The notes under the pieces are model-generated. The model saw only the letters and a list, made by a program, of their open reading frames with translations. It was not told where the DNA came from and did not search any database. Positions 2,463 through 56,471 of a stretch of DNA of 57,590 bases are shown here, in pieces. Numbering within the stretch: position 1 is the first letter of the stretch; each line of letters begins with the position of its first letter. The translations under genes and the position numbers were made by a program. The DNA comes from Sphacelaria rigidula (Eukaryota), in the NCBI GenBank assembly GCA_964200075.2, contig CAXNAA020000003.1:1-57590 (forward strand), in the 5' to 3' direction.

Positions 2463-2600
2463 TCAACAACCCATCTGCGCTCTTCTTGTGTCATCCAGGA
2501 GACGCTTCGTGCCGACGGTGTCTTCGTGATCCTCCCCAAGCGCTCTTCTGCGAATTGCCAAGGCTGTCTCACAGAGCGCTGCGCTCTCCTTGTACTTTCC
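2463..2600 (-). CDS. Divergent terminal (capping) TPR exon GKYKESAALCETALAIRRRALGEDHEDTVGTKRLLDDTRRAQMGC*
   Basis: gtgcag|GGA AAG TAC acceptor in phase 0, the same 42-aa register as the array, then TGA. Not reported in this frame by the ORF track. Confidence 0.82.
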   Translation of the reverse strand, partial: GKYKESAALCETALAIRRRALGEDHEDTVGTKRLLDDTRRAQMGC

Positions 2601-14600: not shown

Positions 14601-17600
14601 CCGAGGGGCCTAGCTGTGGTCTCAATATAAATGTACCCAAGGTGAACGAAACAGAGCGCTCACTGAAGAACAAAAAGTGGAAAAACCAAAACTAAAGGTA
14701 AACGGAGTGGAATCTAGAAAACTAACCAAGCACGAACAAAATAGGAAGAGGAAAAACATGAAACAGTGCCGATGGAACATATACATGTATGTATCATGGG
14801 AAAGGACTAAAGGCCGAGGAAGATTGTGAGCAGAATCGTAGGTTCGCCACAAACTCCTGTCGAAGCCACCAACCCCTGCCGGAAGATTCAAACTAGTTGG
14901 CGTTTGTGCTGCTAAAAAGTACGCCCAGTAGGGACACGTTTTGGCCCAACGTGAGCGGCCGCTGGGATGTGGTTGACAACGCCGTAGCACCGAATCTCAG
15001 TCAGGGGTTCCGTACCGCAGCGGGGAGCTATCGCTACCGCCTCACCCAGATGTATAGCCGATGAGCAATGTATGGCCGCGGCCAAGGGTACTGTGACCAA
15101 TATCGACTGCTCGGGGGTAGAACGGTTCGACTTCGCCGCGTTCACCCCGTAAGTCGAAGTTGGCCCAAAAAAACAGCGAACATCGACACTATACACTGTC
15201 ATTTACACGTCGACCCACGACTACAACGAAGTTCCATCGGCTCTCACCCGAGCTTCCAACAACCCCGCAAGGTTGTGGAGCGTGGCGGCCAAGTTTGGGT
15301 GCTCCGGGCCGAGAAGCTTCTCCTGCATCGCCTGACACTGCTCGTAGAGTGCCTCGGCCTCGGTGGGTTTGCCCTGCAATGTAATACACGACGCAGAAGC
15401 ACCCTATAACGATCAACGCAAGAACTGCAAGGGTGTCGAGGCCATCCCGCCACCGCCCTGCTGAGGTGTGCAGCGGGAGACCGATGTGTGTACAGGGCCA
15501 GGGATACTGTGCCCGACCTCGACCGCTCAGAGGTACGGCGGGTTGTCATTGCAGTGTTCACCATCTCAGTGAACACTGGCTCACATGACCGGCGGACAAC
15601 ACCAACACCACATAATGTCGTTCACACGTCGACATACGACTACGACAAAGTTCCACCTGCTCTCACCTGAGCTTGCAACAGCTCCGCACGGTAATGGAGC
15701 GTCTTGGCTAAGTTCGGGTGCTCCGGGCCGAGAGCCTTCTCCTGCATCGCCTGGCACCGCTCGAAGAGTGCCTCGGCCTCGGCGTACTTGCCCTGCAATG
15801 CAGTACACGACGCAGAAGCATCCTGCCAAGGTCAACGTCGGACCCACAACGGCGGACAGAAGTTCGCGCCACCGCCCCACCCAGGTGTGCAGCCGGCGAG
15901 TGATATGTGTACAGGGCCAAGGGTATTATGTATGCCCAATCTCGGCGGCTCAGAGGAGCAACCGGTTGGCATTCCCGCCTTCGCACTGTCAGTCAACGTT
16001 GGCCCCACAGGACCAGCGAACGTTGACACCGAAATATCGTTCGCACGTCGATACACGAATAAGACAAGAGTTGCAACGGCTCTCACCTGAGCTTGAAACA
16101 AGCGCGCACGGCTACCCAGCGTTGCAGCCAAGTCAGGATGCCCCGGGACAAGAACTGTCTCCAGAATCGCCTGACACCGCTCGTAAAGTGGCTGAGCCTC
16201 GGCATACTTGCCCTGTAATATAGTTCACGACGCGGAAACAGCTTAGAACGGTCAACGTCAGACGTTTGTGTAACGTCGGCCAGACGGTCGCGTCACCGCC
16301 CCCCCAGGTGTGCAGCCGGCGAGAGCCATGTGTACAGGGCCGAGGAAACTATGCCCGATATAACGGGTTGGCTTCTCCGCACTCACCCTCTCAGGAAACG
16401 TTGTCCCACAGGACTATCCAGGAGCATCAACACCACACGATGTCGTTCACACGTCGACACAAGAGCACGATAAAGGTACAACTCCTCTCACCCGAGCTTG
16501 CAACAACCTCGCACGGTTGTGGAGCGTGACGGCCAAATCACGGTTCACCGGGCCGAGAACCTTCTCCTGCATCGCCTGGCACCGCTCGAAAAGTGGCTCA
16601 GCCTCGGCGTACTTGCCCTGCAATGCAGTACACAACGCAGGGGTAGCCTGTAGCAGTCAACGTCGGATCTACAACGGCGGAGAGATGCCCGGGTTACCCC
16701 CTCGCCTTGGTGTGCAGCCGGCCTCCGATGCGTGCGAAGGCAAAGGGTGCTATGCCCGATCTCGACGGCTAAGGGGTACGAAGGGATGGCTTTCTCTAGG
16801 GTCGACGCTCCTAAGAGTGCGGCGGCGGGTGCGAGTGGGAGCATCCCCCACATTGCCTTCAGCAAAGCTTGCGAACGCTCGGGGCGCCTTCCCCATACGA
16901 CTGCCGCGAGGCAGTCTAGCCGAGCCTTCGGGTACTCGGGACACGAACTCGCTTGCGAGGTACGTGTTGGGTTGGGATTCCTCTATCCGTCAAGGAAAAA
17001 CAAAAGGGTTGACTTCCACGCTTCCACCCTCTCAGTCAACACCACCAGCAAACATCAACACCACAATGTCGTTCACACCAACACACAACAACGACGAAGT
17101 TCCATCAGCTCTCACCTGAGCTTGAAACAACCCTGCACGGTTGCGAAGCGTTATGGCCAAGCTCGGGTGCTCTGGGCCGAGAGCCTTCTCCAGTATCGCT
17201 TGGCACCGCTCGTAAAGTGGCTCAGCCTCAGCATACTTGCCCTGCAATGTAGTGTACAACGTCCAAGAAACCTACAACAGTAAACACTGGACACAACAGC
17301 GACGAGGCGCTCCCGCCACCACCCTGCCCTGGTGCGTAGCCGGCGAGCGATGTGTATACAGCGCCAAGGGTACTCTTCCCAATCTCGACCGCTCAGAGGC
17401 ACAGCGGGTTGATCTCGGGGTAATCACCTTCTCAGTCAACACGTCGACACACGACAACGAGAAAGGTACATCGGCTCTCACCTGAGCTTGCAACAACCAC
17501 GCACGGTTCTGAAGCGTTCTGGCCAAGTTCGGGTGCTCTGGGCCGAGAGCCTTCTCCAGTATCGCTTGGCACCGCTTGTAGAGTGGCTCAGCCTGGATGT

Positions 17601-20600
17601 ACTTGCCCTGCAATGTAGAAACGACGCAGAAGCATCCCGTGACAGTCAACGTCGGACCTATGACGGCGGCGAGACGTTTGCGCCATCGCTCTGTTCAGGT
17701 GTGCAGCCGGTGAGCGATTGGTGTACAGGACCACGGATACTATACCCAATCTCGACTGCAAAGGAGTACAACGGATCCGTCTCGCAGTACATGCCCTCTC
17801 AGCCAATGCTGGCCCACAGGATCAGCAAACATCAACACCACACAATGCCGTTCACACGAACACGAGAACTTTTTACCGACTCTCGCCTGAGCTTCCAGTA
17901 ATCCCGCACGGTTGTTGATCGTGACGGCCAACTCAGAATGGTCGGGGCCAAGCAGTTTCTCCTCAATCGCCTGGCCCCGCTCATATAGCGGCTCAGCCTC
18001 GGCGTATTTGCCCTGAAATGCAGTACACGGTTCAGCAGCAGCCTGTAACAGTCAACATCGGACCCACATCGGGGGCCAGAAGCTCCCACCACTGCTTCGT
18101 CAATGCGTGCAGACGGTGAGCAATATGCCGACAGGGCCGAGGATACTATGCCTGATCTCGACGGCTCAGATGTACAACAGGTTGGCTTCACCGCACTTAT
18201 TCCCGAGTCACCGTTGGCTTACAACACCAAATGACATCATCGGCATCACAAAATGTCGTGTACAAGTCGACAGACGACTACGACAAAGTTCCGTTCGCTT
18301 TCACCTGAGCTTGCAACAATCTCGCACGGCTGTGAAGCGTTGCGGCTAAACTAGGGTTCATCGGGCCGAGAACCCTCTCCTGCATCGCCTGGCACCGCTC
18401 GAAAAGTGGCTCAGCCTCGTTGTACTTGCCCTGCAATGCAGTGCACGACGCAGGAGCATCCAGTAACCATCAATGCCGGACCTGCAACGGCGGAGAGATG
18501 CTCGCGCCACCATGCCGATCAGGTGTGCAGCAGTTATGTACAGGGCCAAGAGTAAAATGCCTGATCTCTACGACCCACACGTACAACGGCATGGCCTAGC
18601 CGAGACCGCCCTCCCAGTCATCGTTGACCCACAGCACCAGCGAACAACATCGAAGACACACAATGTTCCCCACACGGACACCCAACGACGAATAAGTTTC
18701 ATCGGCTCGCACCTGAGCTAGCAACAAACCCGCACGGTTGTGAATCGTTATAGCCAGGCTAGGGTGCTCCGGGCCGAGGACCTTCTCCTGAATCGCCTGG
18801 CACCACTCGTAGAGTCGCTCAGCGTCGGTATACTTGCCCTGCACCGTAGCACGAAACAGAAACAAGCGATAACAGTCTACCTCGGACCCGTAACGGCGGC
18901 GAGACGCTCGTGTCACCGCCCAGCCCAGGTGCGCAGCAGGAGAGGCCAACGTGCACAGGGTCAAGGGCAATATGCCAGATCTCGTCCGCTTAGAGGTACC
19001 TCTATTTGGCCTAGTCGCACTCACCTTGTCAGTCAACGTTGGCCCACAGCACCAACGAACCACACCAATACTACACAATGTCGTTTGCATGTCGACACAC
19101 GACGACGACAAGTTCCAACGGCTCTCACCTGAGCTTCCAACAACCCTGCCCGACTACACAGGGTTGCAGCCAAGTCAGGATGCTCGGGGCCGAGAATCTT
19201 CTGCTGGATCGCCTGGCTTTGTTTGTAGAGTGGCTCCGCTTCGGCGTACTTGCCCTGCAATGTCGTTGAGGGCGCAGACGTAGCGTGAAATAGTCAACGT
19301 CGGATCTAGCACGGCGGCGAGGCGCACGGGTAGTACCCCGACCTGGTGTGCAACCAGCAAGCGATGTGTACAGGAAGGGCCATTCGTGCGATCTCCATTA
19401 TCGACGGCTCATAGATGCACTAGGTAGACCTCGCCGCACTCACTTCCTCAGCCGACGTTGACCAAACCTGACCAGCGAAGAACGTCAACACCACACGAAG
19501 TCATTTATATGTCGACACACGACACGGAAAAATTTCCATCGGCTTTTACCTGAGCTTGCAACAACGCCGCACGGTTGCAGAGTGTGGCGGCCAAGCTTGG
19601 GTGCTCCATGCCAAGAATCTTCTCCTTCATCTCATGGCACTGCTCGTAAAGTGGCTCGGCTTCGGCGTACTTGCCCTGTAATGTAGGACACGACGCAGAT
19701 CCAGCCCATAGCAGTCAACGTCGGACCAACAACGGCACCGAGACGTTCGCGCCACTGCGCCCCCCAGATGTGCAGCCGATGAGCGCTAGGTGTACAGGGC
19801 CAAGGCTACTATGGCGCATCACGTCGGCTCAGGGCTGCAACGAGTTGGCTTCGCCCCACTCACTCTCAGTCAAGGTTAGCACACAGGATCAGCGGAGATC
19901 CCAACACGACACAAAAATGTTTACACATCGACATACAACTAGCAGGAAGTTCCGTTAGCCTTTACCTGATACTTCAACAAACTCGCACGGTTGCCAAGCG
20001 TTGTGGCCAGACCTGGGTGCTCCTGGCCGAGAACCTTCTGCTGGATCGCCTGGCACCGCTGGTAGAGTAGCCCCGCCTCTGTGTACTTGCCCTGCAATGT
20101 AGACGCGACGCCGATTGCCTCGTCTTTACGGCTCAGGGGTACAATAGATTTGGCTCGCCGCACTCGCATTCTCCGTCAAGGTTGACTCACAGTACCAGCA
20201 AACAACTTCGACACCACATGTTGTCGCTCACACGTCGACACACGACTAGGGAGTTCCATCGGTTCATACCTGAGCTTGCAACAGCCCCGCACGGTTGTTA
20301 AGCGTTATGGCCAAGCTTGGGTGCTCCAGACCAAGAATCTCCTCCAGCATCGCCTGGCACCGCTCGTAGATTTCCTCCGCCGCCGAAAACTCGCCCTGCA
20401 ATGCAGCACAAAACGCAGAAGCAGCCTGAAATGTTCAACGGCGAATCTACAACGGTAGCGCGACGCCCGGGCCACCGCCCTGCCCTGGTATGCAGCCGAC
20501 GAACACTGTATATACAGGGTCGAAGGTACTGTGCACGACCCCAATGGCTCAGAATTACAATACGTTAGCTTTCCCGCACCCTCTTAGTCAACGTTGTCCC

Positions 20601-23600
20601 ACAGGACCAAATGACATCATCGGCATCACAAAATGTCGTGTACAAGTCGACAGACGACTACGACAAAGTTCCGTTCGCTTTCACCTGAGCTTGCAACAGT
20701 CCCGCACGGCTGTGAAGCGTTGCGGCTAAACTAGGGTTCATCGGGCCGAGAACCCTCTCCTGCATCGCCTGGCACCGCTCGAAAAGTGGCTCAGCCTCGT
20801 TGTACTTGCCCTGCAATGCAGTGCACGACGCAGGAGCATCCAGTAACCATCAATGCCGGACCTGCAACGGCGGAGAGATGCTCGCGCCACCATGCCGATC
20901 AGGTGTGCAGCAGTTATGTACAGGGCCAAGAGTAAAATGCCTGATCTCGACGACCCACAGGTACAACGGAATGGTCGTTGACCCACAGCACCAGCTAACA
21001 ACATCGAAGACACACAATGTTCCCCACACGGACACCCAACGACGAATAAGTTTCATCGGCTCGCACCTGAGCTAGCAACAAACCCGCACGGGTGTGAATC
21101 GTTATAGCCAGGCTAGGGTGCTCCGGGCCGAGGACCTTCTCCTGAATCGCCTGGCACCACTCGTAGAGTGGCTCAGCGTCGGTATACTTGCCCTGCACCG
21201 TAGCACGAAACAGAAACAAGCGATAACAGTCTACCTCGGACCCGTAACGGCGGCGAGACGCTCGTGTCACCGCCCAGCCCAGGTGCGCAGCAGGAGAGGC
21301 CAACGTGCACAGGGTCAAGGGCAATATGCCAGATCTCGTCCGCTTAGAGGTACCTCTATTTGGCCTAGTCGCACTCACCTTGTCAGTCAACGTTGGCCCA
21401 CAGCACCAGCGAACCACACCAATACTACACAATGTCGTTTGCATGTCGACACACGACGACGACAAGTTCCAACGGCTCTCACCTGAGCTTCCAACAACCC
21501 TGCCCGACTACACAGGGTTGCAGCCAAGTCAGGATGCTCGGGGCCGAGAATCTTCTGCTGGATCGCCTGGCTTTGTTTGTAGAGTGGCTCCGCTTCGGCG
21601 TACTTGCCCTGCAATGTCGTTGAGAGCGCAGACGTAGCGTGAAATAGTCAACGTCGGATCTAGCACGGCGGCGAGGCGCTCGCGCCATCACCCCGCCCAC
21701 GTATGCAGGTGTGCAGACGGCGAGCGATGTGTGTACAGGGCCAGGAGTACCGTGTCCGATTTCGACGACTTAGAGATACAGGTCGGACTCGCCGCACTCA
21801 CTTCCTCAGTCAGCGTTGACCACACCTGACCAGCGAAGAACGTCAACACCACGCAAGACCGTTCACACGTCGACACAAGACTACCGTAAAGACACATCGG
21901 TTCGTACCTGAGCTTGCAAGAATCTCGCACGGCTGCGTAGCGTTGTGGCCAGCTTTGGGTGCTCCGGGCCGAGAACCTCCTCCTCGATCACCTGGCACCG
22001 TTCGTAAAGTGACTCAGCCTCAGCGTACATTCCCTGCAATGTGGTACACGATGTGGAAGTAGTCTGTAACGGCCCAAGTCGAATACATAATGGCGGCGAG
22101 GTGCTCTCGCAACTACCCTGCTCTGCTGGGAAGCCCGCGAGCGATATGTGTACAAACCCAAGGACACGGTGCCCAGTCTCGATGGCACAGTGGTACAACG
22201 GGTTCGCCTCACCTCACTCGCACCCTCAGTCAACGTTGGCCAAAAGCACTAGTGAACACCATCTACACTACACAAAGTCGCTCACACGCCGACATTTGAC
22301 CATCGGAAAGGTACATCGGCTTCAACCTGAGCTTGCAATAACTCCGCACGGTTGTGAAGAGTTGTGGCCAGGGTTGGGTGCTCCGGCCCGAGAACCTTCT
22401 CCAGCATCGCCTGGCACCGCTCGTAGAGCGCCTTTGCCTCCGTATACTTTCCCTGCAATGTAGAAACGCAGAAGCAGCCTACGACAGTCGACGTCAGACC
22501 TAAAGCGCCGGCGAGACGTTCGCGCCACCGCCTTGCCCAGGTATGCAGCCAACGAGCGATGTGTGTACGGGGCCAAGAGTACTTACCATGTTCGATCTCC
22601 TCGGCTCAGAGATATGAGGGGTTGGCATTGCCACACACGCCCCCTACGTTGACGTTGACCCGCAGGACCAGAAAACAATATCGAAACCACAAAATATCAT
22701 TCCCATGCCAAATAATCCGACAACGAGGAAGTCTCATGGGCTATCACCTGAGCTTGCAACAACCCCGCACGGCTGTTAAGTATTGTGGCCAAGGTCGGGT
22801 GCCCCTGACCCAGCACTTTCTCATCGATCGCCTGGCACCGCTCGTAGAGGGGATCAGCCTCGGTGTACTTGCCCTGCAATGTGCAGGAGGTAGGAGCAAT
22901 CAGCAACAGTCTAATTCGGACTCGCCACGGCGACGAGATGCTCCCGCTACTGCCCAGCCCTGCTGCGCAGCCGGCGAGCGATGTGTGAACAGGGTCAAGG
23001 ATACTCCATCCACTCAGTTTCGACTGCTCGCAACGTATGAGGGGTTGGCCTCGCCACATTCGCCCTCTGAGTCAACGTAAGTCAACAGGATCAGCCAACA
23101 GGATCGGCACCACACAATGCCTTTCATACATGGACACACAACTGAAAAATATTTCCATTGGCCCTCACCCGATCTTGCAACAACCCCGCACGGTTGTGGA
23201 GCGTGGCGGCCACACTCGGGTGCTCCGGACCGAGAGCCTTCTCCTTCATCGCCTGGCACAGCTCGTAGAGTGACTCGGCCTCGGCATACTTGCCCTGCAA
23301 TGTATTACATGACACGGGAGCAGCCTAAAATAGTTAACAGTGTACCTAGAAAGGTGGTGAGACGTTCGGGCCACCGCCCCGCCTAGATGTGCAGCAGGTG
23401 AGCGCTGCGTGTACAGGGCCAAGGGTACCATGTCGGGTCTCGACGGCTCAGAGGTACGGCAGGTTGGCATTGTCGCACTCACCCTCTCAGTCAACGTTGG
23501 CCCACAGGGCCAGCGAGCAACATCTACACCACACAACGTCGTGCACACGTCGACACACGACTAGGAGAAAATTCCGTCGGTTTATACCTGAACATGCAAC

Positions 23601-32600: not shown

Positions 32601-35600
32601 GTGCATTCGTACTACAGATTCATGTTCAAAAGGTGTAGCTCTGCATGCAGGGCTTTTATAAACTGTTGCTACCAAGGTAAACTGACAGTTCAACAAATAG
32701 CTCTGCATTCAGGATGAACAGTGTTGTAGTGAGCTTGAGAGTAGATACTATACAGTGAAAACGTAAAGCGGTCAATCAATGAATGACTTATTTCAAATCC
32801 TAAATGCACTTCCACCACGCACTGCATGCTATCTGTGGTAGCTTGTCACCGATGCCCTTCATATCCCTCAGTATGATGTCGACGTGTCGCTGAATGCAAA
32901 CGCCGGTGATAGGAGCAAAAAAGAGAACATACGGAATGAATGTTTGCCCAAGTGGAAGCGAACGATCGAAGGTACTTTTAATTGGCGCCCTACTCTCGAC
33001 TCATAGCACTCATGCCGACAACCGATGAACAATATCGATAATCACACTGTGAAGAAATACCCCGCCATGAACACGCTTTTGTGGTTCTAGTTCATGTTTT
33101 GAGTTTTGCTCGATCTTGAGGAGGCTTTTGTGGTTCGGGATCGGGACCCCGGGAAATAGAGCTAGTGTGGACAACTTTCGATGCCCAGAACACGCGCCAC
33201 CGGTATCACATGACATCTAAACCTCACAGGTGATGTACCGCTGCACCTTCTTTGTGCACTGCAAAAAAAAGCGCGGTATAAGATGCTTTGCCGCCGGAGA
33301 AAACTCGGCAAAAGTGGCAAAAAACGCGAAATGATACATGTACATATATATATATATATACAAGGTTCCCCTTCGGGAGTTTGACACGGGCCTCTCGGGG
33401 GTGACGCAAGTCGATAATATCAAATATACTTCGTATGCCTTCTCAGTGCGCTGCAAAAGAAAGCGTGGGAAAAAATGCCTTGCTGGCAGAGAAAACTCGG
33501 CAAAAGCGGTGAAAATATGGAATGATACATGTACATTATACACTTGGGTTGAATGAAGGGAGAAAAAGCGCGCGAGTCATCGCTTTGTCCCCTTCGATCG
33601 AGCAGGTATATATTACCCTCCGCGAAAATAAATAGACGCGGACAAACAAACACAACTAATGAGGGAGCCTCCAATTACAGAACGATGTTTTTGTGAGATT
33701 GAGAGTAGAGGATACGATTGAGAAGGAAAAGCGATCAATTAGTGATTTAATCGTTTTAGTTCCGAAATATCCCTCCGCGAGGCCCTTACCGAAGAAGCGG
33801 GCTAACTCACAGTTATTAACCTGTGAAGTACAAGCGCAGATATGTCCCTGTGAAGTCAGTGTTGCGCCGAAAGGCAAAAAAATCGGAACAAAATCTCACC
33901 GTTTCGCCCTCTAGTGCGCACTGCTGCAGCGCACAGCAGCAGATATAGCGACTTGGAACTGTTGGCTGTGGTTTGCACAGCCTATGAGCGATGTTTAAGC
34001 GCCTCGCAGCGGCTGCAGCGCGCTGAGGGCCGTGCGCCATGAAGTGCGCAGCTCTACAGACTGTATGCCGATCGGTGCACTACATATGGTCATGATGCAG
34101 AAAGGGCCGCAGTACAGACCGGTGCCAGTTTGCCACCACATCGGCCGTCCAGCCGCTCAACATGTCTAAGTTCATGTATCTGCGCATGTATATATGCATT
34201 CGCCTGTAGTGCGACACTGGTAGACCTAAAGAAATGTACATGAACAACGATTGGTACTCGATTTGACTTGGTTTCAGACTGAAGAAAGTTATGAGAAAAG
34301 TCATGATCTGAAGCAGGTGAGCAGTGGTGAGCAGTAGAACCAGGTCGTCCAGAACGTGTTTCGGTTCAAAATCGACTCAAAGGCGTTGATTTGAGCTCTG
34401 GAAAGGCGTCGATTTGAGTTCTCGCAACGCACGCTGTAGCTAAGAAAGTGCACCCCCCTTGCCCGAGAGTTCTCGGTATGCCTTGATCTATGTTAGTGCT
34501 AGGGTTAGGGTTGGAGTTGGTAGCATCGACATTGTACCAACCATTGTTTACGTATTTTCTTTAGGTCCCCTCTGTGAAGTTTTTGTGCCGGTATGAATCC
34601 TTGTCACAAGGACATTCCTGAGCCGGTACTTTACACAGGTGCATCCTTTGAGGGAACTCTCTGTTACGGGTTGCATGACCACAGGGATTTTGTCACCCCC
34701 CTGCGCTTGTCGAGCACAGCTGACCCACAGTGAGGAGGTATGCCCACGTGTGTGCCTTGTTCAACTCGCCAACGGCTCATTGCACGGTCTTGTTTTTGCT
34801 GCTGACTAAGGCGAAGGCAATGTTCAATTGTCTTCAACTGCTTTGCTTCCATGTTCTCCTGACATTTGCTGCATAACCACTGTCTTCGTGCTCCTGAATC
34901 AACAAGAACGCAAAGAGGCTTTTGTCGTTTAGATTCCTCTTTGAAGATTTCCATCATCTTGAAGAGGCCTTTGTGGTTCGCGATCGACACCCCGCGAAAA
35001 GGAGCCAGTGTGGGCGACTTTCGATGGCCAGAACACGCGTCACAGGTACCAGATGACACCCAAACCTGGAAGGTAATGTACCGCTGCACCTTTTTCGCGC
35101 ACTGCAATATAAAGCCCGTGATAAGATGCCTTGCCGCCTGAGGAAACTCGGCAAAAGTGGTGGAAAAAGTGAAATGATACATGTACATATATCTTTTACT
35201 TGTGAGCGTTGTGTTTTTTTGGCTAAACACCGTCAAAATGCTTCTTGTATTGTGTAAAAAAAAACTGCATGTGTGACACATTTTTTATGGGATGCGTTTG
35301 AACTTTGGTGCAGGTTGCATCAGTTAGGTATGCCTGACTAGGCACTGGGACACCGACTGGTCTACGGGCCCTTGCGGTATTCCTGCCCGGGTTCTGGGAT
35401 GTTTTCGGTTCCACTGACACCGGAGTATAGAACAAAGTCCTCTCGTTAGTACCAAAGGGGTGGGTCTGATGTTGATCTTGCGAGCCTTGTGCTCTTTGGT
35501 AAAACATCGACATGTTCTTTGCTTCGTATCATTTTGTGGCATATAAGTGTGTCCCATGTGATCTATTTCCGCCTGATGCGTTGCACTTTAGTGCTGGATG

Positions 35601-38600
35601 CATCTGCTGTCTCTACATGCCTGGGCACTGGGATCCTCATCGGTCCACGGGCGCCTGGGTTTTTCATGTCCGGGTTCTGGGATACCTTCGGTTCCGCTGA
35701 CACCGAAATATGACAACGTCCTCGTCTTCGTAACAAAGCGGTGGGTATGATGTTTATCATGCGAGCCTTGTGCTCTTTGGTGAAACATCATCGAAACGAC
35801 TTTTGCCTCTTGTCAGCACTACCCCGATTGCTGAGAGGTTATCTTCTTTGGGAAGTTACACTTCAGTCACCGTTGACATGACAGATATTTTCCCGTTCAT
35901 GTCTGTATGTTCTAACGCCGTTTTTGTTTTGTTTTCTTCTCTTGTGACTCTCCTTGATCTCCGAATCGTGACCCCGGGCTACTGCTCAACCCTTGAGCGT
36001 TTTGCTAGGACGCTCGAACAGTATGTTGCACAGTCACATCCGTTTCCCTTACCTGATATTTTCGGATTTTGACTCCGGATGTGAGCGCTTTGCTAACCCG
36101 TTGTCATGACGGTATATATCGAGGAGGCGTCTACCTTGTGGTGTTTCGTCAACCTCGATAGGTCAGGTCAGCTGCTGGGCTTTAGCTTTTGAGTCTCATT
36201 TATCTCCGAATTTTGACCTCAGGTTACTGCTCAACCCTTGAGCGTTTTGCGAGGACCCTCGAACAGTCTGTTGAACAGTCAGATCCGTTTCCGTTTCCCT
36301 GTAGTTTTGGATTCCGAGTCCGGATGTGAGCATTCAGCCAACCCCTTGTCAAATTCCGGTGCTGGCGTTGTTTCTCGCGGGTGATAATTCTTCAAATGAG
36401 CGAGATGTACTGACGTTTTTCTAGAGTCGTCGCCTATTTCGAGTATGTACACAAGCGGCGATCGTCTCTCGGTCATCATGAAAGATCCTCTCCATGGTGA
36501 TTGGAGTCCTGGTATGGTGGGTACAAAAGTACCTTTTGACCGGGTGTGAACACTGGGGAAAATTGGAATCTGGTCTTGTTTTCTTGCTCGTTCGCTCTTT
36601 CTCGTAGGACTTGTCTCGCAATTTCAAATCCAAACCGTAGGTTTTCCCGTGTTTCTTTGGAAACTTCTTCGGGTGTTGCTGCTTGGCTCTCTTCAGGTAT
36701 GCCGAGTATAATGTCAATCGGTAATCTGGGCTGTCTTCCGAACAACAAAAAATATGGTCTCTTGTACTGTATTGTGAAATGAAGTGTTGTACGCCATTTG
36801 GACGAATGGAAGCACGGATACCCAGTTTTTATTCCCGATTGACACATGCATAGCTAACATCGCGTGCATAGTGGAGTGGATTCTTTCCGACACTGAATTA
36901 TCTTGCGGGCGTAGCGGTGTCGTGCGAGTTTGATTGAAACCTAACTCCTGTTGCAGTGCGTGTTTTAGATCGCTCTCAAATTCCGCTCTTTAATTCGAAC
37001 GCAGCTTTCCCGGGATGCCAAATGTAGTCAAGACTCTGTCAAAAAGGGTTTTGGCTATATTGATGTGGTCTGTTTTTCCGGCACCGCAATGAGCAAAGCA
37101 TACCTTGTGAGGTGGTCCAATACGAACAGTACCTATTTACCTAGTACTCCAGCGTTTGACATGGAAGTTGTTTTGCATTTGACTAGGTTTACCGACACTC
37201 TCTCGTATGGCCGTGCTACCGGAACGTGTCCCATCGGCACATTCTGGCCCGTTGACTGACAGCTCTCGGTCACTTTGCACTGGCTTCAAACGGTGAAGCT
37301 TATCAGCTGATATTTGGCGGTAATGTGTGGTGCAGCCATTTGCAGCGCATGGTTTTTTGGCACGTTACCACATATTTGGGTAAGCGGCGGTTTGATTTCA
37401 GCTTTTCGTCGCTTTGGAGTAGCGCAAACCGCCGTGAGAGAATGTCCGCCATATCATTTTAACTAGTTCTGCCATTTCACTTTTGTGGTGGCATACTGCA
37501 TTTTTTGTGAGAGACTGGAGCAGGTTTAGAACATTTCACCGCGACTTTATAACAGTATGTTATTTCAGTGTGTTGTATTTTGTGACCCTTGTTGTTTTTG
37601 ATGCAAAGCTTCGATCTTTATTCTGGAACCAAGATGTTCGTTCTCCCGTCTGCCAGTTGAGTACAGAGTATGACTTTGAAGGCACTCATAATGGAGTTGT
37701 CTAGTAGTAGACAATCCGGCCCCAGATTAGGTAATACAAACGATTCTGCTGGTCGGGTTTTTATCCCCAACGTAACCTCGAAATGAATAAACCCTAGGAC
37801 TTTTTATGGGGGAACCGTCCGCGCTTCTGAGATCGATGGCCTGGTGTTCATCTATGAACTTTTGCTGATACACGGTACATCTGCTGCGGAGTCGATTGTG
37901 ATTTTTTGCAGCGAGGGTACCGTTTACTCTGGCTGCGACTCTAACGCGGGCTGATGCACAGGATAGCGCTAGGGCGCATCTGTATACCTGGCGGGTGATG
38001 GTGCGTTGTATGAGTCATAACAGTGATCGTCCAAAATCGGGTTGCAAACGGGAGACTGGTGTTTCGATTTGGAATCAACAGCCCCTGCTTATAACATTGC
38101 TGTTTTTCTGGCTGCCAGTTGAACATGTGTCAGCGCGGAATGTAACGTTACCGATTCATTGGGGTACGGCGGAGAATGTAGCATGATGAGAGCCTCAACA
38201 AGCGGAGCTTCAATTCCGACGACAATGGCTCTTTGTGTGGTGTATTGCTTTTTCCACGGCTGCTCTGATGGCTGCTTAGGAACCAACTCTCACCGTGCTC
38301 TCTTCAGCTTCTGCTGCTGGTATGTACTTTCACACCACAACTGACGGCTGTTTTGGTGCCCCTCTGGAGGAGTGAGATACTGTACTGACCAAGAAACCCG
38401 CATTCCTCCGATATGCTTTCTTCACCAGACGGTTGACACTTTTCTCCCTTTCATGCGTGATGAGGTGTGGGATCTTGAATTGTCTGTACTTTTCAACTTT
38501 TTTCAGCTTGTGCGCTGGGATTCGGACCATCCGATACACCTCCTTCTTTCGCTCGCTACATGGTAGGGAATGACAAGGTCGTGCATTCGCAGGTTGGGTA

Positions 38601-41600
38601 AATTTGTTTGTTAGTGCTATTTCGAGTCATTGCGTTTCCAGAGGTCGGCTTGCTTGATTAATTTGCCTTACCTTTCGCGCGATGATGGTGAAAGGTCGGT
38701 AAATAAGTATGGACTCGCTGTTTAATCAGCCATTCTGATGACATGTAATGTACACTGACGAGACTAATTTCGCGTTTTCGCTGTTTGACTAGCCATACAG
38801 GTGACATATACTGCACCCTGAGGCGTCTAACTTCGCGTCCCGCTCTTTAATTAGTCATGCGGGTGACGTGTAAATGCACATTGAGGGAGCTAATTTCGCG
38901 CTGACCCAACATATGGCTCCAATAACCTCCCACCTCGAATATTTATGCATCTGACCCATATGTTTCACCTGGAGTAGCGTTCCTTAGGGTACCCCAGTGT
39001 TTCCGATGTAGGGGAGCAGTCGGTTCTCGTCCCAATTCTTCACTTCGAAGGCCTGTCTTGCTTGAGTTCTGTTCTGGTGTCGCCAGAGTGAGGAAGGCGT
39101 ATCGCTCGAGTGGTCAGAGACCTACGGGGGAGACTGCCGTCCTGATGCCGAAGGAACACCGATGCTGGCCACGATTTCCTCTTCTATATGTAGGCAAGAA
39201 GTAGGGTCAGACTAGGAGTGGTCGCTAGGGGTGACAAGGACCTTGGGGGATGTTGGACCGTCCTATATTAGGCTCTTTCTGGCATCACCCCGAGTTGTCT
39301 AGTAACGTCGGCATTACAGGGTTCTCGGTAGTTTGGTTTTTCCGGACCGTTCCCACCTTGTCCCCGCTTGCGCTGGGTCTGCATACATGTGTGGCATCAG
39401 TCTCTGATATGTCACTGCAAAGAGGTATCCTCCACAAATGGACACAATAGTAGTCCATCGCTTCAGCAATAGATACGGGAAAAAACCTATCGGTATATAT
39501 AATCGAAAACGGTAGATGGTGAAACACATCTATTGATATTTAAAGCAAAGGACAATTGATGTTGCAACAATAATTTCATGATTGAACGCGCAGTCACAGG
39601 CGAGAAATCCACAACCCAAGTTGCACCGAAAAATGATGGTTGACCGTAGGAAAGTACTCAAATATACATGAGATGCGGTTACGCCTTGATTACGCCGCAT
39701 ATCAAATGCGATTACGTAGTATTGCGGTACGAGTACTGTCTGTAGACCGTACATTGCATCAGCGTGTCATATTGCACTTCATGTAGTGGTCATGACGGAG
39801 TTTTCAATTTTTAAACCCATCAGCTGCGCCGCCAGACATGGATGCAAACAATCGTGCCGTTCTCCCTTGCTTCGGAAGCGATTGAGATTATTCTTTTTCA
39901 GGCAGATTGCACCCTTCATATACTACGCCCTAGTCGTGGTGATGCGCTGAAACGCGAAGCGTGGTCGCTACCTATCGTCGTACAATGGGGGCCGCAAGGC
40001 ACTCCTACCGAGAAACACCATGCACACCACAGAACGCGGGATATTATCACGCTCTCAGCCTGCAACTTGTACCGACGATCCAGCCTTGAACATAGCTTTT
40101 CAGATATTATGCCGTGTGTTGGGCCGTAGGTTGTCCCTCTGGGGCACCTCGCTCGTGTGAACCACACCTACGTTGCGGATGATCCTAGTTGATGATTTAC
40201 ATAATGATTCTTGTATGCGAAAATCGGTACACATTCGACTTTCTTTTTCTTTTGGCACAGCATTGTGCCATTATTAATAGATTTGGTGAGCCGTCGAACG
40301 ATAGTCATTGCCTACATCAATAGATTAGGTGAGCCGCCTATCAATACCGATTACCGTCATCAAAAGATTTGGTGAGCCGTCTACCGGTAGTCTCTGCCGC
40401 AAACGAAGCATTTTTGGGTATCGATCAATATGGTCATTGCCGTCCACAATCGAGTGTCTCGGGAGCACCTATCGATAGCCAGAGATGCAAACGATAGGTT
40501 TTGGCCAATATATTGCTCACTGCAGTGGTCTTATAATATCAACGGCAATACCCCTCACACATGAACACGCAACTACCTGAAGCGATAGCTGGTCATAGCT
40601 TCTGTGGAATGAGGTGGAAACATCCACCGAAACATGTGCATGCATCGCTAGTGACCGACGCCATTCAGCTACTTTTGTGGTCAGCAATAGATATTGGTGG
40701 CCGTGATTCAGATTGCACTGTGACCAGCGATATACATTGGTGGCCGCCACTCAGATGATATTGTGACTCTCGATAGACATTGGTGGGCACAATTAATCCT
40801 ATTGTGGCCAACAATATGTATTGGTGGCCGCGTGGCAGATCCTATTGTGATTAGCAATAGACATCGGTGACCATAATCCAGAGCCGATTGAAACAAATAA
40901 AATGCATCGAGAGACAACGTGGCCCCTCCATTGTCACGGCAATGATACATTCTATCCCTTGTCCCGAATCTATTGTAGCCTACAAAAGCTATCGATAGAC
41001 TTCAATGCCTCTCGATTATGACTGACGATGAACATTGACAGTCAAACTTTCGGAGCCATTACAGCGGCAATGTTCTAATACATAGTCTAATGTCAAGAGT
41101 ATTAGCACATCTCACCCACACACAAAGCACTGTAAGCGCTCATGTCCAGAGGGTCAACCATAAGTACCAACACTACACCAACAACAAAACTTGTAAAATT
41201 TTGTCCACACATGATTCAGATTCCTCCAAAACACAAGCGTTTCAAAATTGTAGAAAGGTAACATCATATATTCACAAGTAGTAGCATCACACACCCACTG
41301 CATGTCAATCTGCGACTTCTCTACCGTACCTTAACGGAGTGTAATATGCTCTAGACGTGGTATGTTGCGATGCAGGTGTGGTAATAGACGACAGATAATA
41401 TATCGGTAGGCATTGTATACCACAATAGATTCTGGTATGTATCTATCGATATTCATTGCCGCCATGCATATATTTTTGTACAGAATCTATCAATAGCGAT
41501 TGCCGCCATCACTAGATTTGGTATACGGTACAATCTTTCGATAACCATCGTCGTCATCAAAAGATTTGACACGCGGTCTATAAATAGATATTGCCGTCAT

Positions 41601-53600: not shown

Positions 53601-53768
53601 TGTGCGGTCTACTACGGTAGTAATATCCGTGTGCTCAACTGTCTCTGTCGCTCTCGCCCGTACCGCTCACCAGAACGCTTCCACGTCACGTATATGAACT
53701 CTTTCTGAACACATCAGATTGTCGGTTCTCACCTGGACCCGAGTGCCCACGACGGCCGGGGAAGCCAT
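2463..53768 (-). CDS. Multi-exon NB-ARC-TPR (NLR-like STAND) receptor gene. Coding exons 53768-53733, 53312-52158, 51868-51554, 50876-50499, 25 TPR exons between 25826 and 15248, terminal exon 2600-2463; about 1720 aa if all exons are included
   Basis: All junctions are phase 0 with AG acceptors and GT (one GC) donors. NB-ARC motifs occur in the expected order, and the last NB-ARC exon (...ADVAEVYALIGALFRLQ) continues naturally into GKYAEAEPLY... Linkage across the 24.7 kb and 12.6 kb introns is inferred; the latter contains an N gap. Confidence 0.8.
4231..4314 (+). mobile_element. tRNA-derived SINE-like head (Pol III A and B boxes)
   Basis: TGGCTCAGTTGG at 4238, GGTTCAAATCT at 4282, then a T6 run; no convincing cloverleaf. 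Confidence 0.6.
4893..4902. other. Assembly gap
   Basis: Run of 10 N. Confidence 1.
7287..7704. mobile_element. hAT-like MITE
   Basis: TIRs TAGAGCTCCGAAATGGT and ACCATTTCCGAGCTCTA, 8-bp TSD CTGGTGAG/CTAGTGAG. Confidence 0.8.
8875..9704. mobile_element. Foldback/TIR element with ~155-bp inverted arms
   Basis: gtcagcgattttca...acgacttccgggctga versus tcagcccgtaagtcgt...tgaaaatcgctgac. Confidence 0.7.
10286..10331. repeat. (GA)n microsatellite
   Basis: Direct inspection. Confidence 0.9.
10573..10864. mobile_element. MITE; a related arm lies at ~33685-33790
   Basis: tgttttcgtgagattgagagtagag / ctctactcttggtcttacgaaaaca inverted ends. Confidence 0.6.
15248..15373 (-). CDS. TPR exon 25, last of array (GKPTEAEALYEQCQAMQEKLLGPEHPNLAATLHNLAGLLEAR)
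   Basis: 126 nt, open, CAG acceptor, GTGAGA donor. Confidence 0.83.
15667..15792 (-). CDS. TPR exon 24 (GKYAEAEALFERCQAMQEKALGPEHPNLAKTLHYRAELLQAQ)
   Basis: 126 nt, open, CAG acceptor, GTGAGA donor. Confidence 0.85.
16087..16212 (-). CDS. TPR exon 23 (GKYAEAQPLYERCQAILETVLVPGHPDLAATLGSRARLFQAQ)
   Basis: 126 nt, open, CAG acceptor, GTGAGA donor. Confidence 0.83.
16492..16617 (-). CDS. TPR exon 22 (GKYAEAEPLFERCQAMQEKVLGPVNRDLAVTLHNRARLLQAR)
   Basis: 126 nt, open, CAG acceptor, GTGAGA donor. Confidence 0.85.
17116..17241 (-). CDS. TPR exon 21 (GKYAEAEPLYERCQAILEKALGPEHPSLAITLRNRAGLFQAQ)
   Basis: 126 nt, open, CAG acceptor, GTGAGA donor. Confidence 0.85.
17482..17607 (-). CDS. TPR exon 20 (GKYIQAEPLYKRCQAILEKALGPEHPNLARTLQNRAWLLQAQ)
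   Basis: 126 nt, open, CAG acceptor, GTGAGA donor. Confidence 0.85.
17887..18012 (-). CDS. TPR exon 19 with GC donor (GKYAEAEPLYERGQAIEEKLLGPDHSELAVTINNRAGLLEAQ)
   Basis: 126 nt, open, CAG acceptor, non-canonical GCGAGA donor. Confidence 0.7.
18305..18430 (-). CDS. TPR exon 18 (GKYNEAEPLFERCQAMQERVLGPMNPSLAATLHSRARLLQAQ)
   Basis: 126 nt, open, CAG acceptor, GTGAAA donor. Confidence 0.85.
18713..18838 (-). CDS. TPR exon 17 (GKYTDAERLYEWCQAIQEKVLGPEHPSLAITIHNRAGLLLAQ)
   Basis: 126 nt, open, CAG acceptor, GTGCGA donor. Confidence 0.85.
19129..19254 (-). CDS. TPR exon 16 (GKYAEAEPLYKQSQAIQQKILGPEHPDLAATLCSRAGLLEAQ)
   Basis: 126 nt, open, CAG acceptor, GTGAGA donor. Confidence 0.85.
19550..19675 (-). 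CDS. TPR exon 15 (GKYAEAEPLYEQCHEMKEKILGMEHPSLAATLCNRAALLQAQ)
   Basis: 126 nt, open, CAG acceptor, GTAAAA donor. Confidence 0.85.
19966..20091 (-). CDS. TPR exon 14 (GKYTEAGLLYQRCQAIQQKVLGQEHPGLATTLGNRASLLKYQ)
   Basis: 126 nt, open, CAG acceptor, GTAAAG donor. Confidence 0.85.
20270..20395 (-). CDS. TPR exon 13 (GEFSAAEEIYERCQAMLEEILGLEHPSLAITLNNRAGLLQAQ)
   Basis: 126 nt, open, CAG acceptor, GTATGA donor. Confidence 0.83.
20685..20810 (-). CDS. TPR exon 12 (GKYNEAEPLFERCQAMQERVLGPMNPSLAATLHSRAGLLQAQ)
   Basis: 126 nt, open, CAG acceptor, GTGAAA donor. Confidence 0.85.
21067..21192 (-). CDS. TPR exon 11 (GKYTDAEPLYEWCQAIQEKVLGPEHPSLAITIHTRAGLLLAQ)
   Basis: 126 nt, open, CAG acceptor, GTGCGA donor. 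Confidence 0.85.
21483..21608 (-). CDS. TPR exon 10 (GKYAEAEPLYKQSQAIQQKILGPEHPDLAATLCSRAGLLEAQ)
   Basis: 126 nt, open; identical by eye to the exon at 19129-19254. Confidence 0.85.
21908..22033 (-). CDS. TPR exon 9 (GMYAEAESLYERCQVIEEEVLGPEHPKLATTLRSRARFLQAQ)
   Basis: 126 nt, open, CAG acceptor, GTACGA donor. Confidence 0.85.
22327..22452 (-). CDS. TPR exon 8 (GKYTEAKALYERCQAMLEKVLGPEHPTLATTLHNRAELLQAQ)
   Basis: 126 nt, open, CAG acceptor, weak GTTGAA donor. Confidence 0.8.
22748..22873 (-). CDS. TPR exon 7 (GKYTEADPLYERCQAIDEKVLGQGHPTLATILNSRAGLLQAQ)
   Basis: 126 nt, open, CAG acceptor, GTGATA donor. Confidence 0.85.
23169..23294 (-). CDS. TPR exon 6 (GKYAEAESLYELCQAMKEKALGPEHPSVAATLHNRAGLLQDR)
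   Basis: 126 nt, open, CAG acceptor, GTGAGG donor. Confidence 0.85.
23588..23620 (-). pseudogene. Truncated TPR exon (only the 3' end and donor remain)
   Basis: tatac|ctgaacatgcaacaaacccacac matches an exon 3' end, then runs directly into intron-unit sequence with no acceptor or GKY codons. Confidence 0.7.
23858..24001 (-). pseudogene. Broken TPR exon: 5' part deleted, telomere-like insertion, last codon TAG, GC donor
   Basis: Exon remnants tcctgcatcgcctggca and ctaagcgttcaacagccccgcac flank a tract of CCCTAA-like hexamers. Confidence 0.75.
24002..24127 (-). CDS. TPR exon 5 (GKYAEAKLLYERCQAIQEKLLGTEHPALAATLGSRAGLLQAQ)
   Basis: 126 nt, open. The donor GTGCCA appears to have been created by a deletion that fuses it to the next broken unit. 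Confidence 0.7.
24409..24534 (-). CDS. TPR exon 4 (GKYDEAEILYERCQGIREKVLGPEHPVFAATLHSRAKLLQAR)
   Basis: 126 nt, open, CAG acceptor, GTGAGA donor. Confidence 0.85.
24861..24986 (-). CDS. TPR exon 3 (GKYTEAEPLYERCHAIEEKFLGPEHVNFSATLDNRAGLFQAQ)
   Basis: 126 nt, open, CAG acceptor, GTGGGA donor. Confidence 0.85.
25289..25414 (-). CDS. TPR exon 2 (GKYTEAELLYERCQAIQEKVLDLNHPDLAATMRSRAHLLQAQ)
   Basis: 126 nt, open, CAG acceptor, GTGAGA donor. Confidence 0.85.
25701..25826 (-). CDS. TPR exon 1 of array (GKYAEAEPLYKRCQIIKENVFGPEHPSLATTVCNRAGLLTTQ)
   Basis: 126 nt, open, CAG acceptor with a unique pyrimidine tract (gtttctattccag), GTGAAA donor. Confidence 0.88.
26515..26651 (-). repeat. Inverted partial copy of the 7287 MITE left arm
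   Basis: Reverse-complement match to ~7289-7440, ending in accatttccgagctct. Confidence 0.7.
26734..28669. mobile_element. hAT-like non-autonomous composite element: two GATACCTAC-repeat modules around ~1 kb of cargo
   Basis: Left TIR CACAGGCATCGTAGGTAAGGTA, right end TACCTTACCTACGGTTTCTGTG, perfect 8-bp TSD CGGTACTC (26726-26733 and 28670-28677). Confidence 0.8.
30969..31170. repeat. Inverted repeat, core of a probable MITE nested in the Gypsy element
   Basis: gtctcaaactcggctcccgg...gtgtcctattttttcaagtgaaagtgat versus atcactttcacttgaaaaaataggacac...ccgggagccgagtttgagatac. Confidence 0.75.
35285..35800. repeat. Two tandem ~285-bp diverged units; a third copy at ~29620-29780
   Basis: Shared ttgcatc...gggcactggga...ggtccacgggcgcctggg...ggttccgc/actgacaccg core. 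Confidence 0.65.
36380..37240 (-). pseudogene. Gypsy integrase remnant
   Basis: VPVARPYERVSV, VLDHLTRYALLIAVP, PYFLLFGRQPRLPIDI, FTPGQKVLLY and VHLAHLKNY across shifted frames. Confidence 0.8.
40265..41664. repeat. Degenerate ~40-bp unit repeats in both orientations, interrupted by the Copia insertion (resumes ~47915-48060)
   Basis: Recurrent atcaatagatttgg...ctatcgata...attgccg motif on both sides of the GGGGC TSD. Confidence 0.6.
41665..47909 (+). mobile_element. Ty1/Copia LTR retrotransposon, full length but decayed
   Basis: 5' LTR 41665-42245 and 3' LTR 47542-47909 (TG...CA), perfect 5-bp TSD GGGGC on both sides, PBS-like GGCTATGAGCCT at 42246, G-run PPT before 47542. Domain order is gag-PR-INT-RT-RH. 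Confidence 0.95.
42479..46790 (+). pseudogene. Copia gag-pol with frameshifts and stops
   Basis: gag (AWDGL..K), protease VVDSGASNHF, WHKILGHPS...CVTC, integrase RIRTDRGGEY and PYTPQQNGMSER, RT WVYKLK..KARLVVQG, LDVQTAFLNG, LYGLRQSP, FVDD, RNase H GYCDSS, STTEAE, NQLADILTK. Split over about nine ORFs. Confidence 0.93.
48495..49867. mobile_element. Large foldback element with tRNA-like heads in both arms
   Basis: 48720-49000 is the reverse complement of ~49100-49400. tRNA-like A/B-box segments lie at 48495-48580 (+) and 49793-49867 (-). Confidence 0.7.
50499..50876 (-). CDS. Exon: NB-ARC winged-helix region (VHD = MHD motif) and linker into TPRs
   Basis: acag|GAT ... CAG|gtgggt, 378 nt. Encodes DEEGAKQEAEFLARSALL...FYVHDLLLDF...LIGALFRLQ. 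Confidence 0.9.
51554..51868 (-). CDS. Exon: NB-ARC helical region (GLPL-like motif)
   Basis: cgtag|GTT ... AAG|gtgcgg, 315 nt. Encodes VAEECGRLALALAIAG...VLSVSLEELGREEQDMFLSLVVL...LAALWEK. Confidence 0.92.
52158..53312 (-). CDS. Exon: N-terminal helical domain plus NB-ARC core
   Basis: 1155 nt open frame from ttag|GCG (ALERTQEAIEE...) to AAG|gtacaag. Contains YVER, P-loop GMGGAGKTTLA, IFWLTVG, Walker B LVVVDDVW and LLVTTR. Confidence 0.93.
53733..53768 (-). CDS. Probable first coding exon (MASPAVVGTRVQ) of the NB-ARC-TPR gene
   Basis: ATG at 53768 and CAG|GTGAGA donor, in phase 0 with the next exon. A pyrimidine-rich acceptor at 53811 (ttttttgccag) means the exon may begin at 53810, with a further upstream UTR or coding exon. 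Confidence 0.6.
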
Positions 53769-56039: not shown

Positions 56040-56471
56040 CACAGGAACCGTAGGTATGGTAGGTACCCGGTACCGGTATTTGGGACATCTCATACCCTAC
56101 CGATACCGATCCAATCGGGTATTTTCAAATGTCATACCTACGATACCTGCGATACCAGGGTATTTCGAGATTTCAATACCTACCGTACCCGCCCAATCCG
56201 GTATTTTCGAAACTCGCACCTACGATACCTACGGAACCAGGGTATTTCGATATTCCGATATCTACCGTACCCGCCCGATCCGGTATTTTCAAAACTCGTA
56301 CCTACGATATCTACGATACCAGGGTATTTCAAGGTTTCAAGACCTACCGTACCCGCTCAATCCGGTACTTTGAAATGTCATACCTACGATACCAACGCAT
56401 ACCACGGTATGGGATACCCCTGTAAATACCGGGGGTACGCTCGGTACGGTACCTTACCTACGGTGCCTGTG
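56040..56471. mobile_element. hAT-like MITE, single-module member of the same family
   Basis: TIRs CACAGGAACCGTAGGTATGGTA and TACCTTACCTACGGTGCCTGTG, 8-bp TSD ATGCCGTC/ATGCCATC, internal ~65-bp tandem units. Confidence 0.85.

Follow-up and report, generated by a model that had tools for sequence, protein, structure and literature searches.

A probable NB-ARC-TPR receptor-like gene with 25 one-repeat exons in the brown alga Sphacelaria rigidula

Does a long row of equal repeat exons encode one receptor or a library of many? The question is raised by a stretch of 57,590 nucleotides (nt) from Sphacelaria rigidula (the whole of contig CAXNAA020000003.1, positions 1 to 57,590; hereafter the window). 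On its minus strand, exons for an NB-ARC module are followed by 25 exons that each encode one tetratricopeptide repeat (TPR) unit and by a terminal exon, the cap. An earlier interpretation made from the letters alone (the sequence-only reading) had taken the locus for a combinatorial library that makes many ligand-binding surfaces by splicing and/or DNA rearrangement. Our analysis favors a plainer answer. The locus is probably a single NLR-like gene, encoded in the germ line and belonging to the brown-algal NB-ARC-TPR family; it would have 30 exons, all in phase 0, and its product is predicted to have 1,723 residues. That product would probably begin with a helical bundle at the N-terminus, continue with an NB-ARC (STAND) NTPase module, and end in a long TPR solenoid formed by the 25 one-unit exons and the conserved cap repeat.

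The order on the minus strand is four constant exons with the NB-ARC module (53768-50499), the 25 TPR exons (25826-15248), and the cap with the stop codon (2600-2463). The array is separated from the NB-ARC exons by 24.7 kb and from the cap by 12.6 kb. When the 30 exons were joined by script, a frame of 5,172 nt (1,723 codons) was obtained in which the sole stop is terminal. The lengths of all 30 exons (30/30) are divisible by 3; therefore, every intron is in phase 0 and, as had been claimed before, any subset of exons remains in frame. A tblastn search with a single TPR unit gave 25 strong minus-strand matches within 15248-25826 and a weaker match at the cap (2600-2508). A nucleotide profile of the array exons found 25 full-length copies in the window, all on the minus strand, with E values from 2.5e-31 to 4.2e-38. 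The same profile gave 14 weak partial rows besides, just one of which was on the plus strand, at chance level (E 4.5). All 25 array units are exactly 126 nt long and open in frame, and all 25 are preceded by an AG acceptor. The donor after the exon is GT in 24/25 and GC in 1/25 (E19, 17887-18012). The splice donors and acceptors of the locus are all strong and similar to one another. Pfam TPR_10 and TPR_12 were present in 3/3 array exons tested singly and in the open reading frame (ORF) of the cap, and Pfam NB-ARC (PF00931) was found above the cut-off (E 1.4e-16) in a 388-residue frame at 52146-53312 on the minus strand. The anatomy given by the sequence-only reading, which consisted of an NB-ARC module, 25 open 126-nt phase-0 exons, and a capping exon, was therefore confirmed by tblastn, the exon profile, the reading of boundaries, and the joined frame, and the domain families it had named were recovered by Pfam. 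Its coordinates for the constant exons were exact as well: the ATG is at 53768, exon 4 ends in CAG/GT, and the cap is preceded by CAG and ends in TGA.

All four constant exons are on the minus strand. Exon 1 (53733..53768) is 36 nt long, comprises the ATG and 11 codons, has the donor CAG/GTGAGA, and matches the N-termini of two paralogues, P0007 and P0008. Exon 2 (52158..53312, 1155 nt) encodes the helical-bundle domain at the N-terminus together with the part of NB-ARC that contains the P-loop. Its best long relative is P0001, a partial S. rigidula protein of 1,226 residues, to which it is 81% identical; identity to the S. rigidula paralogues is 79-81%. Exon 3 (51554..51868, 315 nt) encodes the second NB-ARC part and aligns with P0001 by tblastn at 88.6% over 105 residues. 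Exon 4 (50499..50876, 378 nt) is the last constant exon, with the donor CAG/GTGGGT, and it closes on a stretch similar to the final third of an array exon. A deposited partial S. rigidula model of 405 residues, P0015, is an exact substring of the 30-exon model: it agrees with the exon 2 donor, contains exon 3 exactly, and ends exactly with exon 4. A GxxxxGKT-type loop and an hhhhDD motif were seen in exon 2 and are nearly invariant in alignment A1; we take them to be the P-loop and Walker B of the NB-ARC NTPase. A profile built from exon 2 and its relatives matches Apaf-1 (E 3.3e-17), NRC4, CED-4, and ZAR1-type chains through the NB-ARC part. The model of P0001 passes from the exon 4 equivalent directly into TPR exons, and the best matches to its TPR part include Ectocarpus siliculosus proteins named NB-ARC and TPR repeat-containing. 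Together with the shared strand, the compatible phases, and the single open frame, P0001 is the ground on which the NB-ARC exons and the TPR array are predicted to be on one product.

Transcription of the array was followed with assembled contigs of four runs (X1, X2, X5, and X8) mapped on 14000-26500. X1, X2, and X8 were classed as RNA-like solely by exact splice joints that the DNA run X5 lacks, as no run is recorded as RNA. X5 has even intron coverage, and the figures for X8 equal those for X1, so that these two are probably the same data. Since assembled contigs lose rare variants, they show the main form rather than the absence of others, and their depth cannot rank expression. Among the 15 joints listed, of 19, there were 13 splices from neighbor to neighbor, which exactly confirm 13 of the 24 array introns: E6-E7, E7-E8, E8-E9, E10-E11, E12-E13, E13-E14, E14-E15, E17-E18, E19-E20, E20-E21, E22-E23, E23-E24, and E24-E25. 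The skipped lengths, taken as a set, equal the predicted introns (293, 294, 279, 240, 279, 282, 290, 178, 289, 290, 293, 295, and 295 nt), and the DNA run X5 gave 0 contigs for each of the 13 joints. The GC-AG intron after E19 is among those spliced in the RNA-like runs. Two contigs with zero differences from the window, one of 396 nt (X1) and one of 430 nt (X2), span E7-E8-E9, and further RNA loose ends fit the adjacent exon at E3-E4, E9-E10, E15-E16, E18-E19, and E21-E22. The array is transcribed and is precisely spliced in order at 13/24 internal introns.

The individual exons, all on the minus strand, are placed as follows. E1 (25701..25826) is open over its 126 nt, flanked by AG and GT, and matched by Pfam TPR_12 and TPR_10. 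The boundaries of E2 (25289..25414), E3 (24861..24986), E4 (24409..24534), and E5 (24002..24127) were read, and the loose end at 24537 is the one that fits an E3-E4 join. Neither E1 nor E2 has a joint among those listed, and the pairs E1-E2, E2-E3, E4-E5, and E5-E6, having no listed joint, are uninformative. E6 (23169..23294), whose boundaries were also read and which was tested against Pfam, is joined to E7 (22748..22873), which together with E8 (22327..22452) and E9 (21908..22033) makes up the three-exon contigs. E10 (21483..21608), which is identical to E16 (19129..19254, boundaries read), is joined to E11 (21067..21192), which has 2 differences from E17 (18713..18838). E12 (20685..20810) has 2 differences from E18 (18305..18430) and is linked by pairwise joints through E13 (20270..20395) and E14 (19966..20091) to E15 (19550..19675). 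E17 is joined to E18, and E19, the exon with the sole GC donor, is joined to E20 (17482..17607), which is joined to E21 (17116..17241). The last joints run from E22 (16492..16617) through E23 (16087..16212) and E24 (15667..15792) to E25 (15248..15373), the last 126-nt exon, in which Pfam TPR_12 was found at E 5.6e-10. A 296-nt contig of the RNA-like runs (17215-17510) covers the entire 240-nt intron between E20 and E21; the retained frame hits a stop before E21, and the contig is either a case of intron retention or an unspliced precursor.

Two further listed joints go back along the array. Back-splicing and rearrangement were considered for them and rejected, since E10 is the same as E16, and E12 does not differ from E18 in its first 108 nt; these joints are read as ordinary neighbor joints placed on the other exon copy. 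No exon-skip joint occurs among the 15 listed of 19, in contigs that lose rare variants. The proposal that the locus works as a combinatorial library was thus left unsupported, because 13/15 listed joints are neighbor splices and the remaining 2 are accounted for by duplicated exons of identical sequence.

At the far end of the array, the cap (2463..2600, minus strand) is 138 nt long and has 45 codons, a TGA stop, and a CAG acceptor. It encodes a divergent TPR unit of the C-terminal type of the family, is matched by Pfam TPR_10 (E 4.3e-8), and is unique within the window. A cap-type motif lies within the last 90 residues in 14/22 brown-algal relatives examined, including Ectocarpus NB-ARC and TPR repeat-containing proteins, and by these comparisons the cap is a conserved feature of the family. 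An X2 RNA contig continues from E25 into a 28-letter loose end that agrees with the start of the cap at 26/28 letters, and no closer site is present in the window. The 12.6 kb between E25 and the cap contain no recognizable gene. No Pfam family was matched by 9 ORFs of 135-265 residues (7 between the array and the cap and 2 upstream of the gene) or by 6 further ORFs in that same interval and in intron 4.

How did the array grow? Mean pairwise identity is 76.8% between the exons and about 74% between the introns (aligned columns). The introns are about as alike as the exons, which indicates that whole units were copied and not the exons alone. The consensus of 21/24 array introns (240-330 nt) contains a decayed TPR unit with stops at a fixed place, which was detected at E 1.4e-5 against the exon protein profile, and weak matches occur at the same place in many individual introns. 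The repeat unit of about 419 nt, which is also the period found by Tandem Repeats Finder (TRF), therefore consists of a live exon and an intron that already holds a dead exon. The joint copying of dead and live exons suggests simple tandem duplication and not a special shuffling machine. An inverted TPR relic was sought in the introns and none was found, and the dead TPR exons are confined to the coding strand, as the exon profile gave no credible plus-strand copy in the window.

The exceptions among the introns record the same kind of copying, all on the minus strand. Intron 5 (23295..24001) is 707 nt long and holds a dead unit, with an exon 3' remnant at 23859-23927 (exon profile, E 1.4e-6) and an extra intron copy at 23619-23855 (intron profile, E 3.6e-41). 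A decayed 26th unit (14962..15247) follows E25 as a full array-intron copy (E 6e-51) with no usable exon behind it; the exon trace there is weak (14906-14950, E 6.8). A tract covering E16-E18 and their introns (18221..19326) is paired with 20601-21680 (E10-E12). Over this 1.1-kb pair, identity is 97-100% in 60-column windows, compared with 73-77% just beyond both borders, which fall in introns; by this pattern, the tract is a recent conversion or duplication. The dead units, intron copies, and tract would all fit unequal recombination and conversion of the ordinary kind, acting in the germ line on tandem units. We propose that the array grew by germline tandem duplication and gene conversion of the approximately 419-nt unit, by which the number of repeats and their surface residues could change over evolutionary time. 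Exon gains, losses, and conversions would stay in frame because every exon is 126 nt long and in phase 0. Intron 21 (16618..17115, minus strand, 498 nt) carries an insertion of about 210 nt at 16795-17004, which splits the intron profile into 1-128 and 116-293. The DNA-run depth in the bins of this insertion is 1602-4281, compared to about 80-150 in most others, as is the case for a high-copy short genome repeat.

Comparison of the array exons with one another indicated that they are under coding constraint. The mean proportion of nonsynonymous differences (pN) is 0.18, compared with a mean of 0.41 for synonymous differences (pS), and the median dN/dS is 0.37, with a value above 1 in 1/296 usable pairs; these figures compare paralogous exons and are silent on the time since the transposon insertions described below. 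The ten most variable columns (4, 8, 17, 20, 27, 30, 33, 34, 37, and 40) have pN 0.40 and pS 0.44, and the other 32 columns have pN 0.11 and pS 0.40, a contrast that describes a pattern and is not a test, since the ten were picked after viewing the data. In Pfam coordinates, an array exon starts at position 16-17 of the TPR_10 and TPR_12 profiles, so we infer that the product of each exon is the second helix of one TPR, followed by the linker and by the first helix of the TPR after it. The variable positions 30, 33, 34, and 37 would share one face of that first helix, and this is likely the face that binds ligand. Exon 4 would finish with such a first helix, and closing helices would come from the cap; on structural grounds, these two exons and the array may be expected to belong with one another. 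By analogy with STAND and NLR families, the TPR solenoid would sense a ligand and hold the NB-ARC module off; ligand binding would permit nucleotide exchange and oligomerization, and the N-terminal bundle would then signal.

The nature of the N-terminal bundle was examined with residues 1-200 of exon 2 (52713-53312, minus strand), which matched no Pfam family and had 36 relatives among 1.84 billion representatives. Alignment A2, made from these 36 relatives and closer paralogues, has 44 members, of which 29 carry NB-ARC. The model predicted from this alignment is a helical bundle with a pLDDT of 81.8. The natural structures that matched it best include the MLKL N-terminal bundle (Z 10.2, 98 aligned, root mean square deviation 2.2), AtMLKL3 (Z 9.2), the coiled-coil (CC) domain of MLA13 (Z 8.4), and the CC-R domain of NRG1.1 (Z 7.9), but designed or unrelated helical bundles reach equal Z, and values under about 13 are common for bundles. 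A Foldseek search with the bundle model returned nothing at E ≤ 0.001. An MLKL- or CC-type identity of the modeled bundle may be taken as a lead only. A fold of the whole of exon 2 (pLDDT 54.3) was also tried and set aside: plant resistosomes were matched to it by Foldseek through the NB-ARC part, and these matches were not used for the N-terminal domain.

Are the NB-ARC exons and the array still one gene? The answer depends largely on intron 4 (25827..50498, minus strand), whose 24,672 nt contain two long terminal repeat (LTR) retrotransposons, a satellite, and TPR exon relics. The first retrotransposon is a copia-type element (41660-47911, plus strand) with LTRs 96-98% identical and Pfam matches to copia gag, rve (integrase), and RVT_2. 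The second (28984-39436) has LTRs 96.6% identical, and the two elements make up 16.7 kb of the intron. The TPR exon relics were located with the exon nucleotide profile at 50048-50139 and 25931-25992 on the minus strand. Array-type intron halves flanking intron 4, which would be the sign of an old short intron split by the insertions, were looked for and none were found. The satellite (period 82-101 nt by TRF) occupies 26790-27206 and 28290-28608 in intron 4 and recurs upstream of the gene at 56096-56410. Related repeats are also present near both contig ends, at 757-1126 and 56988-57385, and the right one is a palindrome of about 390 nt that is 83% self-complementary.

Several observations weigh against a single intact gene. 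The LTR insertions may have disrupted it recently. The junction from exon 4 to E1 across the 24.7-kb intron is a prediction, and the intron profile found no array-type intron sequence just upstream of E1. The deposited P0015 starts inside exon 2 and stops exactly at the exon 4 donor, so that it does not join the array to NB-ARC. None of the best 120 TPR proteins (674-2146 residues) matching the TPR part of P0001 is from this contig, which is weak evidence. The limits given above on the dN/dS comparison and on the ten columns count on the same side. So does the single run of 10 N in the window (4893-4902, between the array and the cap), as the spacing and adjacency of these two depend on the scaffold join at that run. 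Paralogues are a further concern. In some RNA contigs, exons that are near-identical to E11, E8 (middle part), and E24 are joined to stretches absent from the window (including a loose end at 23180), which shows that near-identical paralogues with mosaic exons are also expressed and that their transcripts are mixed into the RNA-like contigs. The DNA depth over E24-E25 (15251-16084) is 2-5 times that of most other bins and points to near-identical paralogue copies. With this raised depth and the 2/28 mismatches, the contig leading from E25 into the cap-like sequence may derive from a paralogue.

One alternative explanation is a split or disabled gene, in which the LTR insertions have uncoupled NB-ARC from the array. 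The array would then be transcribed from a start in intron 4 or as a non-functional remnant, and the NB-ARC side would give a truncated product or none. The length of intron 4 with its 96-98% identical LTRs, the end of P0015 at exon 4, and the sequence upstream of E1 agree with such a split, as does the RNA-like contig depth over E1, which is near 1 with no E1 joint among those listed, though contig depth cannot rank expression. On the other hand, 30/30 exons are still open and keep intact splice sites, transcripts of the array are precisely spliced, and the half repeat at the end of exon 4 requires completion by an array exon, as happens in P0001. We consider a split gene unlikely, though it deserves to be kept in view. 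Another possible explanation is that the 25 symmetric exons are cassettes from which regulated alternative splicing gives many receptor isoforms from one gene. That any subset stays in frame (126 nt, phase 0) and that contigs lose rare variants would allow this, and alternative splicing of repeat exons has been reported in brown-algal ROCO genes (PMC11378527). However, every listed joint is either between neighbors or due to identical copies, without a skip; the 396- and 430-nt contigs each hold three consecutive exons; and the splice sites are uniformly strong and alike, as expected of constitutive exons. A splicing repertoire is therefore improbable.

It has also been proposed, by Zambounis et al. 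2012 (PMC3341825), that somatic recombination acts in the NB-ARC-TPR family; exons would be reshuffled in individual cells in the manner of variable lymphocyte receptor (VLR) or V(D)J genes. The 1.1-kb conversion tract and the dead units as potential donors could be cited in favor, along with X5 DNA contigs that join distant units at three places. These distant joins are not evidence, however, because they lie in a repeat region where assembly graphs mis-join and paralogues map. In addition, the germline gene is already complete and open, and a germline event would suit the conversion tract, which is fixed in the assembly and has coverage in the DNA run. The brown-algal ROCO paper states that neither somatic recombinant loci nor matching recombinases are reported in brown algae (PMC11378527). 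Somatic reshuffling is accordingly the least credible of these explanations, with hardly any likelihood. A broader version, in which the symmetric exons and the dead exons in the introns form a repertoire generator through regulated exon choice or somatic conversion from relics and paralogues, is a long shot. If it were true, different TPR surfaces per cell or after infection would amount to an adaptive-like receptor system in a brown alga. Both the splicing and the somatic-recombination ideas are already published hypotheses. By its title, a study by Teng et al. from 2023 (Plant J 114:246) reportedly deals with exon shuffling and alternative splicing in NB-ARC-TPR genes.

How does the single gene that we favor compare with known systems? 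In Ectocarpus, 24 NB-ARC-TPR genes are described, and 13 of them have a TPR domain built from 42-residue exons; those 13 loci yielded 124 exons of 126 nt, and inactivated TPR exons occur in coding-strand introns (PMC3341825). A survey of brown-algal genomes lists NB-ARC-TPR among the expanded families (bioRxiv 10.1101/2024.02.19.579948). The present locus resembles the Ectocarpus genes in having NB-ARC followed by 126-nt TPR exons, dead intronic TPR exons on the coding strand only, signs of exon duplication or conversion, variable sites in a conserved scaffold, and near-identical paralogues (PMC3341825). It differs from them in the 25 exons of one array, compared to about 9.5 per locus there (a mean over 13 loci); in the dead exon that is regular in almost every intron and inherited with the repeat unit rather than locus by locus; in the 24.7-kb transposon-filled intron; and in the host order, Sphacelariales by database label (PMC3341825). 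The family placement made by the sequence-only reading, which regarded the family itself as not new, was thus upheld by the NB-ARC module, the 126-nt TPR exons, the coding-strand relics, and sequence kinship.

Similar designs exist elsewhere. Brown-algal ROCO genes also have one repeat per short symmetric exon in tandem arrays and are proposed variable immune receptors, but they have 72-nt phase-2 leucine-rich repeat exons, a ROC-COR GTPase, exon copies on the non-coding strand, and reported splice variants (PMC11378527). No splice variants were seen here. The NLRs of the fungus Podospora share with this gene a STAND NTPase and a TPR, ANK, or WD array that changes by unequal recombination or conversion, with variable sites on the binding face (PMC13449251). 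Each repeat here is its own exon, unlike in the fungal genes, and most repeats are only about 77% identical. In those genes, a single exon holds the repeats, which stay far more similar to one another. Tandem in-frame cassettes between constant parts are shared with Dscam clusters and the lamprey VLR. In Dscam, one exon is picked per cluster; here, by contrast, the RNA includes neighboring exons in series (three-exon contigs, 13 neighbor joints) in place of a mutually exclusive choice. The germline VLR gene is incomplete until flanking cassettes fill it in, unlike the present germline locus, which is already complete with its open frame of 1,723 codons, in distinction also from V(D)J genes.

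The locus is a further member of the brown-algal NB-ARC-TPR family, which stands out by its long array, by the dead exon that is a regular part of its repeat unit, and by an intron filled with transposons. To what was published, our analysis adds that the array is transcribed and spliced in order, that a dead exon is copied in the unit, and that a recent conversion took place inside the array. It also supplies exact junction positions: 50499/25826 and 15248/2600, both predicted, and the 24 internal ones. The in-order splicing, the copied dead exon, and the recent conversion narrow what the published idea of adaptive immunity must show. The locus thus provides a clean example, and an unusually long one, of the one-repeat-per-exon architecture that is thought to let the brown algae's candidate immune receptors change quickly.

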